A stretch of DNA of 64,000 bases, from positions 69,139 through 133,138 of IMG/VR virus record IMGVR_UViG_3300025528_000005. One strand, given 5' to 3'. Below, in pieces: positions 35,420 through 40,401 of the stretch. The notes under the pieces were generated by a model. The model ran no database searches and was not told the origin of the DNA. It saw only the letters and a program-made list of their open reading frames with translations. The first letter of the stretch is position 1. Each line of letters begins with the position of its first letter. The stretch is from a virus. The translations under genes were made by a program, and so were the position numbers.

Positions 35420-35965
35420 GGGCAGGTTCTGTCCAAGTCTGTCCAAAAACGGCAGGACAGGGAGCTTTGCGTTTTTCCTTATAAATCAAGCACTTTCAGA
35501 TTTCGCGTCCAATTTGTCCAATTCTCTCAGAAAAATTGGACACACGAAAACCCTTGTGGATAAAGGGAAAGATAGTGATTTGTCCAAAAATTTGGAATTT
35601 TTAGGGAAACATACATATCACTTTACTTTTGACCCTTAGAACTTGTGAAATCATTCTCCTCTATATATATAAATATAAATATTTTTTAAAACCTCAAATA
35701 TAATAATATATAAAGAGGGCCGTATTTTTTGAATTCTAGTGAGTTGAGCTCATAACAAACCTGATATATGTTTTCCTGAAAAAGGCAAATTTTTGGACAA
35801 ACTGGGACTTTTCCCTTTATTCATGCGGGGTTTCGTGTGTCCAATTTTTCTGAGGGAATTGGACAGCCAGGACAGAACCTGCATTAAGTCCTTGATTTTC
35901 AAGAAGTTTTTGAAATTTAAACTTGGACAGCTTTTTGGACAGTCCAGGACAAACCTGGACAGTCG
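35420..35965. repeat. Probable replication origin: inverted arms with TGTCC/GGACA iterons around an AT-rich core
   Basis: About 14 iteron copies; an imperfect inverted repeat of about 80 bp (35515-35592 vs about 35787-35865); a perfect 13 bp IR at 35422-35434/35870-35882; A/T core at about 35661-35715. Confidence 0.75.
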
Positions 35966-35997: not shown

Positions 35998-36438
35998 ATG
36001 CTAGAAGACCCCTTCATTGGAACCAAAATAGAACTTCTAACTGTTCTAAGCCGAGACTCAGAGCGGTCCTCTGGAACGGCTCTCTACTACCATTGCCGGT
36101 GCATTTGCGGAAACACGAAGTCCTTTCTTAAGCAGCGGTTAACCTCTGGCAGGGTTTACTCCTGCGGGTGTTCCAAGCCGGCACAGAAAAGACGAGTCTT
36201 TGAGCCTGGCTTAAAGCTCGGCCTCTGGACCTTGCTCGAGAAGGATTCCGACAGGTCGAACAAGTCTGTTGTTTACTGGAGGTGCCAGTGCGACTGCGGG
36301 ACCGTCAGATCTGTCTCCTCCCCTAGCCTGAGTGCCGGCCTGTCCCAGTCCTGTGGTTGTCTTCGAAAGTCCGGGAACCGGAAGGTAACCTCGCGGCTCG
36401 GCCGACCTCGAAGCCGCAGTACCGAGAGTCAAGAATAA
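35998..36438 (+). CDS. Cys-rich tandem-repeat protein (DNA-binding module of HNH/AP2 homing endonucleases, no nuclease domain)
   Basis: Two copies of L(T/W)(V/T)L...(Y/W).C.C.CG.....L..G.(S/V).SCGC. Confidence 0.7.
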   Translation: MLEDPFIGTKIELLTVLSRDSERSSGTALYYHCRCICGNTKSFLKQRLTSGRVYSCGCSKPAQKRRVFEPGLKLGLWTLLEKDSDRSNKSVVYWRCQCDCGTVRSVSSPSLSAGLSQSCGCLRKSGNRKVTSRLGRPRSRSTESQE

Positions 36439-36447
36439 TGAACTTTC

Positions 36448-36457
36448 TGGTATAAGA
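36448..36457 (+). promoter_or_regulatory. Promoter of the RT unit (TGGTATAAGA)
   Basis: Recurrent motif. Confidence 0.7.
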
Positions 36458-36459
36458 GG

Positions 36460-36550
36460 ATTGCAGCGAGGCCTTCGCTGTAAAGGTGCTCCCCTGTCGT
36501 GAAACAGTGTAGTATTCGCCGCAAGGCAAAATGTGTTGTATCATAGGGGA
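36460..36550 (+). ncRNA. Candidate RT-associated structured RNA, 5' part
   Basis: Hairpin TGCAGCGAG-GCC-TTCGCTGTA, GCC-GCAA-GGC GNRA hairpin, and segments complementary to 38241-38300. Confidence 0.45.
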
Positions 36551-36559
36551 ATAGCTTAC

Positions 36560-36688
36560 ATGCATCGTTTGATCGCTATTCTTCGTCTCACCCAAAAGGT
36601 TCTGACGTTGGCTGCACGGATCGTTGCCGTGGCGCTAGTCGTCGTGAGCCAATATGTTGGGCTAGACGAATCTAAAGCTACTGCTTAA
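36560..36688 (+). CDS. 42 aa hydrophobic peptide (not in the ORF track)
   Basis: AGGGGA RBS; MHRLIAILRLTQKVLTLAARIVAVALVVVSQYVGLDESKATA. Confidence 0.45.
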   Translation: MHRLIAILRLTQKVLTLAARIVAVALVVVSQYVGLDESKATA

Positions 36689-36756
36689 TCGCTCTTTTTT
36701 CGTTTAGCTCTGTTAGCAACCGCGGTTAGTAACTGACCGCTTCATCGAGGTTCAAG

Positions 36757-37377
36757 ATGGAAAGTCTGACAACCTCGGCAAGGAATGTGCCGAAGATGTC
36801 TACTCCAACTCTGGAGGTTCGAAGGAACTACTACGTCATTCCGGATGGTCAAAGATACCACTACTTCCCTATCACGGTATCTGACGACCGTGAACGACCG
36901 TTTATAAGGTTCTCTAAGGCTCCTCCCGTCCTTATGGAGGGTATCGCCATCATAGGAGAACCCAGGTCCCGGAGAGCGCCTCGTCTGTATCACGTCCCTT
37001 TGCAGGACCTGATGCGTGGCCTCATTCGTAAATCCAGAGAGATCAAACCTGCTAATCGAGTAGCGACCAATGGAAGTACAGGAAACCCAACAGACCACAA
37101 CTCCTCAGACGGTTCAGACCAGGCGACAACTTCGACTGGCGGAGAATGTGCCGATAGAACCGTTCAACGTGTCGACCAACAGCGAGCTGGCGACCTTATT
37201 GAAATGGAAGTCTGCGAAGCTGCTGACCTTGCTTGGACGGAACAAATCGACGCACTACTCCACCATCTATCTGAAAAAGAAGGGGAAGAGTGGGAAATTG
37301 CGGATCCTGCACAATCCAGACAGGTTGATGAGAGCAGTGCAATACAGGATCTTGAAAGAGATTCTGGAGAAAGTTGA
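36757..37377 (+). CDS. Hypothetical protein overlapping the RT 5' end (or structured RNA)
   Basis: GAGG RBS and a plausible first 100 aa; the last 308 nt overlap the RT in another frame. Confidence 0.4.
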   Translation: MESLTTSARNVPKMSTPTLEVRRNYYVIPDGQRYHYFPITVSDDRERPFIRFSKAPPVLMEGIAIIGEPRSRRAPRLYHVPLQDLMRGLIRKSREIKPANRVATNGSTGNPTDHNSSDGSDQATTSTGGECADRTVQRVDQQRAGDLIEMEVCEAADLAWTEQIDALLHHLSEKEGEEWEIADPAQSRQVDESSAIQDLERDSGES

Positions 37378-38206
37378 AGTACCTGGATACATCCATGCTT
37401 TTGAGAGGGGCAGGAGTATCCCGACCATGGCTCGAGCTCATGTTGGCAAAGGCCTGGTCATTAGCATTGACCTAAAGGATTTCTTCACCTCTATCAAGCA
37501 GTACCATTTGTTTCAGATTTTCAAGCACCTGGGTTTTGGAGATGCACCGGCTCGGACCCTCTCCGAGCTCTGCACCTATCAAGCCTTCGTCCCGCAAGGC
37601 GGGTTGACCAGCCCCAAGCTGAGCAACATCGTCACGGCGCTGACGTTCGGACCGATTCTCAAGGAGTATTGTGACCGGAACGGCTATACGATCACAATCT
37701 ACGCGGATGACGTTACGATCTCGGCGAACGAAGATCTGATCGGCAAATACGGGATTGGTGCTGTTGAAGAAATCCTCCAATTTGTATCAGACACGGTCTC
37801 CTCCTTCGGCTTCCGAGTGAACCGCAGGAAGACCAAACTGATGCGCCCTTTCCAACGACAGTATGTATGCGGCGTCGTTGTGAACCGCACGATCAATCTG
37901 CAAAAAACTGAGCGTCGCAAACTCAGAGCCATGGTGTACAACGTGAAGCGTCACGGTGTCGAAGCAGAGGCCGCACGCAGCGGTCTCACGCCGAGCGCGT
38001 TCATCAGTCGACTCATGGGGCGATTGAACTGGTTCAGCCAGCTGAATCCCGAAGCTGGTGCTCGCTTGTTGTCAAAGCTTAGAGAAGTCGTTGAGGAGCA
38101 AGGCCAACCCAACGCCAGAGCTGGAGAAGTAGAAGCGATTGTGTCTTCAGACAGCTCAAGCACCGCACCAGGTGCCTCGACCGCATCCGATGCGCCCTGG
38201 AGCTAG
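37070..38206 (+). CDS. Retron-type reverse transcriptase
   Basis: K.R.L.NP, HAFERGRSI..MARAH (NAxxH-like), DLKDFFTSI, PQGGLTSPKLSN, YADD, and VCGVVVN (VTG-like); no maturase or endonuclease domain. Confidence 0.92.
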   Translation: MEVQETQQTTTPQTVQTRRQLRLAENVPIEPFNVSTNSELATLLKWKSAKLLTLLGRNKSTHYSTIYLKKKGKSGKLRILHNPDRLMRAVQYRILKEILEKVEVPGYIHAFERGRSIPTMARAHVGKGLVISIDLKDFFTSIKQYHLFQIFKHLGFGDAPARTLSELCTYQAFVPQGGLTSPKLSNIVTALTFGPILKEYCDRNGYTITIYADDVTISANEDLIGKYGIGAVEEILQFVSDTVSSFGFRVNRRKTKLMRPFQRQYVCGVVVNRTINLQKTERRKLRAMVYNVKRHGVEAEAARSGLTPSAFISRLMGRLNWFSQLNPEAGARLLSKLREVVEEQGQPNARAGEVEAIVSSDSSSTAPGASTASDAPWS

Positions 38207-38400
38207 TTTTCTAAGGTCTTTCTAGGCAAAAAGACCCGGTCTGTTTCACGAACGCACCAATTCCTGCAACTGCAGTATCCTTCGTTAAAGGGGGAGAGCA
38301 TTATGGGTTACACAATCCCGGGCCCGCAGCCGGCCCGCTCACAGGCTGCACCAAGTTCAATGTCTCAGTGTTAGCATCATAGACGAAGATCAGCGATATT
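38207..38400 (+). ncRNA. Candidate RT-associated structured RNA, 3' part
   Basis: GGTCTTT/AAAGACC and GCAGCC/GGCTGC hairpins; CTGTTTCACGA is complementary to 36497-36507. Confidence 0.45.
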
Positions 38401-38428
38401 GCTCCGGGGAAACCCGGAGCCTCTTTTT
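38401..38428 (+). terminator. Terminator of the RT unit
   Basis: GCTCCGGG-GAAA-CCCGGAGC-CTCTTTTT. Confidence 0.8.
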
Positions 38429-39533
38429 AGCCTAGATGAACTCCAGCTTCGTCTACAATGACGAAGTGACCGGATTTTCTCATCTCCACCGAGCCACTCT
38501 CTATTGTAAATGTGCCTCCATCAAACTCTGATTGGATGCCGCTTGAATTCATGATGGTTGTAGCGCCATCTTCGTGCTCTAAAAGAATCTTCTCTCCGTC
38601 AATCGTGACGATTTGGCGATCATCGAAGTTCGCCTGAATCATTGATTCGTTGATCGTAATGGTATTCCGATCTCCGAAGCTAAAGGTAAGCTGAGCTCCG
38701 GTCGCCTTCATCCGGGTGAACGTCCCTCCGGCTTTGATCCAGACTTCCTCATTCCCATTGAGCTCGACCGTTCGGCGCATAATCTCTTCGCCGCCGTCCG
38801 TGATCTGCTCCTTGAAGATCACTGAATTCGTCCCCGGAGCTGATCCTGCGTTTTGATGATCTGTTTTTATAGCTTCGGCTAAGGCCGTATCTCCGTAGTA
38901 GAGGTGATACTGATAGTCCTCAACCTTGCTGCTGGCAAAGCTATTCGTGTACCCCGTATATCGGTAGATCCGACCACGAAGGTTCTTGATCACGTCAGAC
39001 GATACGTCGGTGAAGTGCTCCCAGTTTCGAGACACAACCCTAACCAGGTCGTCCAACTTCGACAGGAAAATCTCTGAGAGCCTCGAGCTTCGCAGTAGAA
39101 CGGATCCGGCTCGAAGAAGGGCTACCATGCCTCCACCTATCGATGACAGGACACGATCACCGACCACCATGTCTCTAGGCTTGTTCTGGTCACTGGATAT
39201 GTTGGTGCCGCCTGGATTGTAGTTTCCAGTATCGATAAGCGTCTGTCCGGTATCGATTGAAATCGGGAAGGCATCGTGGGCTGCCTGAATTCGACCTAGG
39301 TAACCAGTGATCACCGGGTAGCCCAAGGTGTAGTCAAGCTTCACTCGATCCCCTAGCATTGGGGTTACCCTATCCCCTGCCCTGCTCGCCCCTCCCGAGA
39401 GCTGCTCCCACTGAACCCCATCCAGGTTCTGTCCTGAGAGAGTCTGGACTTTACAAACACGTCGATTGGGATCGACTTGTAATACGGTTCCTTCGTCGAA
39501 GTCCGAGTTAGGTTTTACTGGGTTCTTGAACAT
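38427..39533 (-). CDS. Baseplate central spike (gp5/gpV-like OB fold plus beta-helix)
   Basis: G.V..VDP.RR.CKV...P..GDRV.L....GYP OB pattern; C-terminal ITINES/VTIDGE/TTIMNS/FTIESG beta repeats. Confidence 0.75.
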   Translation of the reverse strand: MFKNPVKPNSDFDEGTVLQVDPNRRVCKVQTLSGQNLDGVQWEQLSGGASRAGDRVTPMLGDRVKLDYTLGYPVITGYLGRIQAAHDAFPISIDTGQTLIDTGNYNPGGTNISSDQNKPRDMVVGDRVLSSIGGGMVALLRAGSVLLRSSRLSEIFLSKLDDLVRVVSRNWEHFTDVSSDVIKNLRGRIYRYTGYTNSFASSKVEDYQYHLYYGDTALAEAIKTDHQNAGSAPGTNSVIFKEQITDGGEEIMRRTVELNGNEEVWIKAGGTFTRMKATGAQLTFSFGDRNTITINESMIQANFDDRQIVTIDGEKILLEHEDGATTIMNSSGIQSEFDGGTFTIESGSVEMRKSGHFVIVDEAGVHLG

Positions 39534-39618: not shown

Positions 39619-40401
39619 ATGAAAATCCAGATCAAGTCGGATCTCCATAAGGAGACCCGTCCACAGGCCTATCGTGCCCAGGATGGGAATAGTAAATCCA
39701 TTATGCACCCGGATGCTGACATACTCATTCTTGCCGGGGATATTACCGACTACGCCAATCGTTTTGCCCTATATCACGAGCTCACGCGCTTCGATCGCCC
39801 AATCCTTTACGTTCCCGGCAATCACGAGTACTACCGGGCCGATCACGTCCGATTCGTGCTCCCGGAGCTCAAGGCTCTCTACAAGGGTACCAACGTCACC
39901 GTCCTCGATCGGGACTTCGTGAACATCCGAGGTGTTGCCTTCATCGGGGCGACGCTCTGGACCAATCTCACGGATCCGCTGAAGGCCGAGTCGGCCAGGA
40001 ATTCCTTGAACGACTTCCGTGTGCCTGGTCTTGATCCTGGCTGGTATACGATGCAGCACATCGAGGCGGTCAAGTTCCTCAAGCAAGCTTTGGAGTTGCA
40101 CTCGCATCTGAAGCGAGTCGTGATCACTCATCATGCGCCGAGCCACCTCTCGATCCATCCGCGATACGTCAACAACCAGCTGAACTGCTGCTTCGTTTCA
40201 AACCAGTCGGACCTGATGCTCGATTATGAGCCGCAGCTCTGGGTTCATGGACATACCCACGACCCTTTCGATTACAACATCGGTAAGACCCGTGTGATCT
40301 GTAATCCGAAGGGTTATCCCGGTGAAAAGGCACAGACACGCCTCTCTGATCCGGAGCCGCCTACCCTTATCTACAACGAGGACCTCATCGTCGAAATCTG
40401 A
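39619..40401 (+). CDS. Calcineurin-like metallophosphoesterase
   Basis: SDLH, LAGD, PGNHEYY, THHAP and HGHTH motifs. Confidence 0.92.
   Translation: MKIQIKSDLHKETRPQAYRAQDGNSKSIMHPDADILILAGDITDYANRFALYHELTRFDRPILYVPGNHEYYRADHVRFVLPELKALYKGTNVTVLDRDFVNIRGVAFIGATLWTNLTDPLKAESARNSLNDFRVPGLDPGWYTMQHIEAVKFLKQALELHSHLKRVVITHHAPSHLSIHPRYVNNQLNCCFVSNQSDLMLDYEPQLWVHGHTHDPFDYNIGKTRVICNPKGYPGEKAQTRLSDPEPPTLIYNEDLIVEI

Follow-up and report, generated by a model that had tools for sequence, protein, structure and literature searches.

Organization of the operon and its surroundings

The DNA analysed here (the window) was a stretch of 64,000 nucleotides, positions 69,139 to 133,138 of the 168-kb IMG/VR virus record IMGVR_UViG_3300025528_000005. 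Read from its sequence, an operon in the window has the order promoter, 42-aa peptide gene, hairpin, ORF A and retron-type reverse transcriptase (RT), with the following features.

36448..36456, + strand: extended −10 promoter TGGTATAAG, recognised by motif conservation
36560..36688, + strand: small ORF of 42 aa, amphipathic/hydrophobic and SP-like, conserved in position and character
36722..36740, + strand: leader hairpin with an 8-bp stem and a UAA triloop, directly 5' of the ORF A Shine-Dalgarno sequence
36747-36750, + strand: ORF A Shine-Dalgarno sequence, GAGG
36757..37377, + strand: ORF A, 206 aa, putative RT partner protein with 129 homologue clusters
37070..38206, + strand: retron-type RT, 378 aa, YADD at residues 211-214, Pfam RVT_1 2.8e-22
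38401..38420, + strand: intrinsic terminator-like hairpin, 8-bp stem with 7 G-C pairs, then the CTCTTTTTAG T run

A sequence-only reading of this DNA had described an ORF at 36757..37377 whose last 308 nt overlap the RT in another frame, both translations being of low complexity where the overlap begins. Both observations were confirmed.

The RT matched phrog_2825 (2.6e-55), and its PADLOC scores were 1.4e-68 (230.1 bits) for RT_XIII, 2.7e-68 (228.5 bits) for RT_III-A and 190.3 bits for RT_VI. It was found to match 46 PADLOC families at E ≤ 0.01, and the best 25 of these 46 were all retron RT models. The nearest solved chains were all retron RTs, with the RT of Ec86 at the top (7.8e-32, residues 49-336). 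Judged from these matches, the protein belongs to the retron or retron-like RT lineage. No curated NCBIfam retron model reached its cut-off; retron_St85_RT, for example, scored 169.9 bits against 235. Residues 1-30 of the RT were unconserved. It was also observed that the RTs related to that of the window end in a conserved Pro-Trp after a variable acidic or low-complexity tail (38190-38206 in the window).

In bacteria, retron-type RTs are known to act as anti-phage sensors, and they serve as genome-editing tools. In the present case, a retron-type RT was encountered as a conserved, phage-restricted gene. The source phage was of the myovirus type, as indicated by its large terminase and tail sheath genes, and its nearest cultured relatives by terminase were Salmonella phage Arash and Vibrio phages D69, D181 and D148, and none of these appeared when the RT was matched to deposited phages. 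In 50,697 deposited phage genomes, neither ORF A nor the locus had a match at the DNA or protein level, and the RT had distant relatives only (<32% identity). Of 185,579 species genomes, a single one carried the RT family, on a MAG contig of 2.9 kb, and the family is therefore essentially phage-borne. An alignment-based scan of viral contigs provided 31 viral loci with RT relatives, which are the related loci of this work; 13 of the 31 lie within ∼2 kb of a contig end.

Synteny extended beyond the operon itself. A 208-aa gene on the − strand was found upstream in 9 related loci, and a 368-aa gene convergent to the RT was found downstream in 24 (38427-39533, − strand, in the window). A metallophosphoesterase gene (39619-40401) follows the 368-aa gene, an arrangement shared by 13 of those 24 loci. 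The 368-aa protein had no Pfam, PHROG or PADLOC family. Judged by gene order, the operon occupies a syntenic position in a clade of large uncultured myoviruses.

A large imperfect inverted repeat was observed at 35420-35965, with arms at 35515-35616 and 35764-35865 that are 81% complementary, an A/T-only core between the arms and many TGTCC/GGACA repeats. By these sequence features it looks like a replication origin, and it is kept in related phages. At least five related viral contigs end within ∼200 nt of their match to it; assemblies thus tend to break at this element. One further gene lies between the origin-like region and the promoter of the RT operon.

35998-36438: HNH endonuclease gene (phrog_374, 1.9e-20)

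No counterpart was found at that place in related loci, and the gene is therefore probably a mobile homing-endonuclease insertion.

The promoter of the operon was not reported by a generic sigma-70 scan, which needs a −35 box. It was identified by conservation: all 15 related loci examined have a TGGTATAA[G/C] motif ahead of the small ORF, at a distance of 73-157 nt. The same TGGTATAAG also precedes other genes downstream of the RT in three loci (L009, L010 and L016). On this motif comparison, TGGTATAAG is probably the phage group's own promoter consensus and not specific to the RT operon. Equivalents of the small ORF were found in 15 loci; they encode 42-46 aa, or 100-104 aa in L008 and L011, and the ORF stops within ∼35 nt of the hairpin. 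By analogy of position and character, this peptide may correspond to the small toxic protein that type VI retrons encode.

The trailer 3' of the RT had no DNA similarity to the related loci. In the window it carries, at 38289-38375, a strong Shine-Dalgarno-like GGGGGAGAG followed by an ORF of ∼23 codons, and a similarly placed Shine-Dalgarno sequence and short ORF starting MD/MG...I..H were seen in the RT trailers of L001, L003 and L004. This ORF may be another small gene, or its recurrence a coincidence. Two complementarities between leader and trailer, 36497-36507 with 38241-38251 and 36572-36588 with 38381-38397, were rejected as near chance, by our own estimate, in the 2.6-kb self-comparison.

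Folding of region 36690-37069 and the leader hairpin

Region 36690-37069 had been flagged as dense in hairpins, and the sequence-only reading offered for it either an msd-like template or an RT partner protein encoded by an overlapping gene. The seven stem pairs that it named were all found in place.

36722-29/36733-40: stem 1
36775-80/36788-93: stem 2
36803-07/36812-16: stem 3
36854-59/36876-81: stem 4
36874-78/36887-91: stem 5
36922-26/36936-40: stem 6
36964-69/37005-10: stem 7, AGGTCC/GGACCT

Because bases 36876-78 are common to both, stems 4 and 5 are mutually exclusive. The + strand of the region folded at −132.4 kcal/mol, compared with −109.2 ± 5.6 kcal/mol for 100 dinucleotide shuffles (z −4.1), and none of the 100 shuffles folded as well; the − strand had a z of −1.9. 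The + strand thus folds better than shuffled controls, the comparison that the sequence-only reading had proposed. As a genomic background, thirty 380-nt windows across the 64-kb window were folded on both strands (n = 60), which gave a mean z of −1.1 (sd 1.2) and a most negative value of −4.2, the flagged region scoring −4.25 by the same script. The region is therefore in the tail of the background yet not unique, and its hairpin density is special only moderately. When the 67-nt leader was removed, the ORF A coding part had a z of −2.1 in the window and a mean of −2.2 in 14 relatives. In the related loci, the RT body had a mean z of −2.1, compared with −2.5 for the flagged region.

From a 13-sequence alignment, RNAalifold kept a single helix, that at 36722-36740. 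The stems inside ORF A (five helices were counted on this alignment, stem 5 being omitted for its clash with stem 4) were 47.9% paired versus 47.1% in column shuffles, and covariation was not in excess. Stem 7 sits in a 7-codon insertion unique to the window sequence. The six stems inside ORF A are incidental features of one sequence, and no msd-like template was found in 36690-37069. For the ORF A body, the template proposal is thus not supported, its internal stems being unconserved; a conserved RNA element does exist in the form of the leader hairpin.

The hairpin at 36722-36740 is the sole conserved RNA element among the seven stems. Its cells were 99% paired across 12 distinct sequences, compensatory changes were present in 5 of its 8 pairs, and the apical consensus UAG-UAA-CUA was nearly invariant. 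The covariation score was 0.667 versus 0.230 in shuffles, with none of 500 shuffles reaching 0.667, and slid controls gave 0.03-0.22. RNAalifold recovered the hairpin on three alignments. The + strand pair counts included G-U and U-G pairs, and with a covariance model the + strand outscored the − strand in nearly every locus. Each locus had a single site by this model, in every case located after the small ORF and before ORF A, and no further site was found in 306 kb. The hairpin ends 0-8 nt upstream of the ORF A Shine-Dalgarno sequence. No hairpin was found by the model in the distant ORF A-RT loci (L015, L017-L020, L023-L027, L030 and L033), which indicates that it is not essential to the ORF A-RT pair.

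The leader upstream of it also folded stably, with a z of −3.0 from promoter to hairpin in the window and a mean of −2.5 over 14 loci, compared with −1.1 for the background. In the MFE folds of the window and of L001-L006, a block just 5' of the hairpin pairs with the 5' UTR to give a multibranch closure, somewhat like the a1/a2 closure of retrons. In the window the block, at 36713-36719, pairs with 36485-36490, and the closure encloses the small ORF; in L001-L006 the block is conserved as TCGCTTAGCTCTTTTAG. In a second putative stem, a local one at 36654-36666/36706-36716, a G-C pair of one sequence is replaced by A-U in the other when the window and L001 are compared, a single compensatory change. 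Rfam gave no match at the gathering score; at E ≤ 5 there was one match, inside the RT, which was dismissed as chance-level.

These properties raise the question of whether 36690-36745 with its hairpin, or the whole region, is the cognate retron-like template or recognition RNA of the RT, which would also be coding. In such a case the hairpin would be a recognition or priming element for the RT and the coding of ORF A secondary. A hairpin that covaries and also keeps its apical sequence suggests sequence-specific recognition by a protein, the leader is more stable than the background and closes on itself in the folds above, and type VI retrons combine a template and a small-protein ORF on one RNA (10.1101/2025.10.22.683967). 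Against it, consensus folding of the whole leader from 10 loci recovered the hairpin alone, an a1/a2-type repeat with covariation was not found, no Rfam family was matched even at E ≤ 5, the six ORF A stems were unconserved, and in the more distant half of the ORF A-RT loci the hairpin was missing. We consider a cognate RNA possible but doubtful; it is compatible with ORF A being a gene. Most likely, the hairpin would serve as a protein-recognised RNA operator or as a 3' end-stabiliser of the peptide-bearing leader RNA, a role that might be comparable to that of the structured 'hybrid RNA' of type VI retrons.

ORF A and its out-of-frame overlap with the RT

The flagged region comprises the 3' end of the structured leader and the 5' two-thirds of ORF A. 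The remaining part of ORF A continues into the RT gene in another frame, and its product was predicted to consist of three parts.

36787..37056, + strand: basic beta-barrel domain, ORF A residues 11-100 (AlphaFold2)
37057..37191, + strand: low-complexity disordered linker, ORF A residues 101-145 (pLDDT 45-54)
37192..37377, + strand: acidic helix and tail, ORF A residues 146-206, in the +2 frame of RT codons ∼41-103
37070..37377, + strand: dual-coding overlap of 308 nt, RT frame +1 relative to ORF A

An exhaustive HMMER search at E ≤ 1e-3 gave the 129 representative homologue clusters of ORF A, mostly of 155-205 aa, which aligned over residues ∼10-200 with the overlap part included. Longer forms of 374-396 aa had N-terminal extensions without a Pfam domain. 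No Pfam, PHROG, PADLOC or NCBIfam family was matched by ORF A, and a PDB profile search was empty. Judged by this homology, ORF A is a real gene and belongs to a new family that has no name; the partner family thus comprises at least 129 sequence clusters without a curated name. In L001-L027, L030 and L033, the close loci, ORF A was found beside the RT, and it was missing beside three distant RTs (28-31% identity). Outside the overlap, its dN/dS was 0.06-0.17 in seven scorable pairs, demonstrating purifying selection on this part. It had been suggested that dN/dS be set against RNA covariation to decide what the flagged region is. The reading frame proved to be conserved and under purifying selection outside the overlap, and covariation was found in the leader stem alone. 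In answer to the question, the region is a gene with one RNA hairpin, and an msd-like template is not supported.

In the AlphaFold2 model of full-length ORF A, the block means of pLDDT over residues 11-100 were 91-98, and the domain modelled alone had a mean of 87.7. Fold searches were made with the full model and with the N-domain, using Foldseek against PDB and BFVD, VIA wide, and ESM Atlas by shape and features. No convincing match to the barrel was obtained (Foldseek E > 0.7, VIA Z ≤ 5). The best matches were PilZ-like or split-barrel folds (Z ≤ 5, TM < 0.5) with no OB or SSB chain among them, although matches this weak say little against an OB-fold. Among 60 family members, the N-domain had a mean net charge of +4.9, the linker was 29-58 aa long with 62% S/T/N/G/P/Q/A, and the C-terminal part had a mean net charge of −10.1. 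The second half of the linker overlies the variable RT N-terminus. A helix was predicted by AlphaFold2 at residues 147-174, the C-terminal part carries the motif A[DN]xAWxEQ...LL...EGxE[WFY]EI, and L167, L168, W179 and E180 were each at least 90% conserved.

In essentially all close relatives, the ORF A frame continues for about 70-120 codons within the RT gene, out of frame with it. The length of the overlap was 197-368 nt in the close loci, the ORF A endpoints being variable. The ORF A frame was open across the overlap in 21 of 21 non-identical diverged phage loci. When the synonymous codons of the RT were shuffled with the RT protein and its codon usage kept, the ORF A frame remained free of stops in 0-1% of the trials for each locus, the expected number of stops being 3.7-6.3. 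In 12 of 12 loci with an x-G-K of the RT at the E[WFY]E motif of ORF A, a T was found at the RT third position, giving W in ORF A; in the loci with a differing RT sequence there, ORF A has F or Y. The identical-codon fraction of the RT rose modestly over residues 46-75, to 0.49-0.51 compared with 0.42 in the rest of the gene. The dN/dS of the ORF A frame in the overlap was at least 0.4 and not below 1 in several pairs. Such values are expected because the third positions of ORF A are second positions of the RT, and for the same reason the classical dN/dS cannot prove constraint in the overlap.

If the openness of the frame came simply from RT codon usage, the C-terminal ∼100 codons of ORF A would be unselected read-through and the N-domain alone functional. 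The dN/dS values just given and the variable endpoints would agree with this. The codon shuffles, which left the frame open in at most 1% of trials per locus, argue against it, as do the four conserved residues, the T held at the RT third position, an acidic W-containing helix encoded on separate DNA in locus L026, and the complex model described below, which puts exactly this C-terminal segment on the RT. We regard read-through as very improbable. On these comparisons, the ORF A frame is kept under selection in the overlap. In L012-L014, a long protein-like extension of ORF A lies opposite a low-complexity insert of the RT, and from this arrangement it appears that the second frame drove an insertion in the RT fingers. 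The insertion, ∼50 residues and S/T-rich, was observed after an RKK motif in L012 (3700-5281), L013 and L014.

The pair in L026 (616-1973) is unlinked. Its ORF A has 124 aa and stops 5 nt before the RT ATG; it keeps the same domain and a short acidic W-containing helix, and its RT is without the variable ∼30-residue N-terminus. This locus is useful for deciding the ancestral arrangement of the pair. Because the RT frame in the overlap is an ordinary retron RT N-terminus, the overlap part of ORF A was probably overprinted on the RT 5' end. An out-of-frame overlap of ∼100 codons that is kept across RTs down to 46% identity is rare in dsDNA phages.

Whether the two frames yield one protein was also considered, either by a programmed +1 frameshift that fuses ORF A to the RT or because a sequencing frameshift split one long RT gene. 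The frames do overlap across a low-complexity stretch, and the arrangement evidently confuses annotation: many homologous database RTs are annotated with ∼290 aa (292-aa products) starting at the internal M87, a mis-annotation that is systematic in databases and is caused by the overlap. The same frame relation in 21 independent assemblies, however, shows that the overlap is no sequencing artefact. The RT starts at an AATG of its own, invariant in the 13-sequence alignment, and purine-rich Shine-Dalgarno-like motifs were seen by eye upstream of it in most loci, which indicates that the RT and ORF A are separate products. Past the RT start, the ORF A frame has conserved motifs of its own and a defined stop, a conserved slippery site was not noticed, and in L026 a stop and a 5-nt spacer precede the RT ATG. 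A fusion or a frameshift error is thus extremely improbable.

Predicted docking on the RT and relation to known systems

Prediction of the ORF A-RT complex gave an ipSAE of 0.68 (0.69, 0.67 and 0.68 in separate runs), and the best of three controls gave 0.00. Of 80 solved complexes, 58 reached this ipSAE mark, as did 2 of 110 mismatched pairs; these counts apply only roughly, since our own alignments were used for the prediction. The runs shared at least 49% of contacts, with a partner pLDDT of at least 58. In the predicted interface, residues 152-182 of ORF A face residues 66-95, Q176-L179/P182, Y211-D214 (YADD) and C267-V269 of the RT, and RT residues 66-95 come from that same DNA, read in the other frame. 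As modelled, the ORF A helix that the overlap encodes docks in the RT catalytic cleft, with the caveat that structure predictors easily place acidic helices in nucleic-acid clefts.

The suggestion that the overlapping gene encodes an RT partner protein is supported by a conserved stop-free frame, purifying selection and a docking model with controls. The best joint explanation, which we hold to be probable, is that ORF A is a conserved RT partner, that the overlap is selected and that the hairpin is a separate RNA element. ORF A would then be a tethered partner in three parts, barrel, linker and helix. The basic N-terminal barrel, for which no recognisable nucleic-acid-binding fold was found with Foldseek, VIA or ESM Atlas, might bind nucleic acid, namely the RNA or cDNA of the RT. 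The acidic, aromatic-tipped C-terminal helix would sit in the template/primer cleft by QGxxTSP, YADD and 'CGV', and would either keep the RT inactive or pass substrate to it. If this helix regulates or loads the RT, it would be a compact natural switch for RT activity, and also a case in which overprinting has produced a ligand for the product of the other frame.

It is tempting, though we judge it unlikely, to go further and propose that this origin-adjacent phage RT works with an SSB-like chaperone, whose helix is a plug and whose barrel coats the cDNA. The docking helix would come from the second frame of the RT 5' end, one DNA encoding both faces of the interface, and the acidic helix, mimicking nucleic acid, would plug the cleft until displaced by the leader RNA with its hairpin or by a trigger. 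The RT would then serve the phage and not the bacterial host, whether by priming replication, by making decoy DNA for counter-defence or by excluding rival phages.

Acidic aromatic C-terminal tips that dock on polymerases are known from SSB-type proteins such as E. coli SSB and T7 gp2.5. By analogy, ORF A resembles them in its basic beta-rich domain, disordered linker and acidic aromatic tail; it differs in that no OB-fold or SSB match was obtained by sequence or fold, and in that the docking part includes a helix of ∼28 residues. In phage overprinted pairs such as the overlapping genes of phiX174 and Rz/Rz1 of lambda, a second protein is encoded in the other frame and the products cooperate. 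The present pair differs from these, since the older frame is the N-terminus of an RT and the overprinted segment is predicted to bind the product of the other frame, RT residues 66-95 included.

Among solved structures, the closest relative of the RT is that of retron Ec86 (Eco1; PDB 7v9x/8qbk), with the QGxxTSP, YADD and xxG motifs, which are characteristic of retron RTs, in common. In Ec86, by contrast, an msr-msd lies upstream and the effector genes are separate; no partner ORF overlaps the RT, whose N-terminal coding region is single-coding. In type XIII retrons, the RT is linked to a winged-helix/SWIM Zn-finger protein, usually with an ARM/HEAT-repeat protein (PMC7736814). No SWIM or ARM match was found among the operon neighbours searched (the 42-aa ORF, ORF A, the 368-aa protein and the metallophosphoesterase).

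The closest parallel in layout is found in type VI retrons (Vpa2, Eco12 and Sen3; RTs of Mestre clade 3), which have the order RNA-SP-HTH-RT (PMC7736814; 10.1101/2025.10.22.683967; 10.64898/2026.04.27.721009). In Retron-Vpa2 the RT, the HTH partner and the hybrid RNA form a complex, and in Retron-Sen3 a short conserved stem-loop with compensatory changes matters (10.1101/2025.10.22.683967; 10.64898/2026.04.27.721009; PMC7736814). Like these systems, the phage operon has a structured leader with a putative SP-like ORF, a putative partner gene upstream of and overlapping the RT, and the RT itself. Unlike them, its partner is not a Cro/C1 HTH protein (Pfam was empty) and is modelled as a beta-barrel followed by a linker and a single long helix; the two genes overlap by ∼70-120 codons and not by a few bases; and the RT fits RT_XIII (230 bits) and RT_III-A (228) better than RT_VI (190). 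An msr-msd arm was not found at the phage locus by Rfam or leader consensus folding, and the setting is a syntenic phage gene set by an origin-like region and not a bacterial defence island. Because of the non-HTH partner, the RT scores, the failure to find an msr-msd and the phage core setting, the operon is classed, on its sequence features, as of the retron-RT-plus-partner kind and outside type VI.
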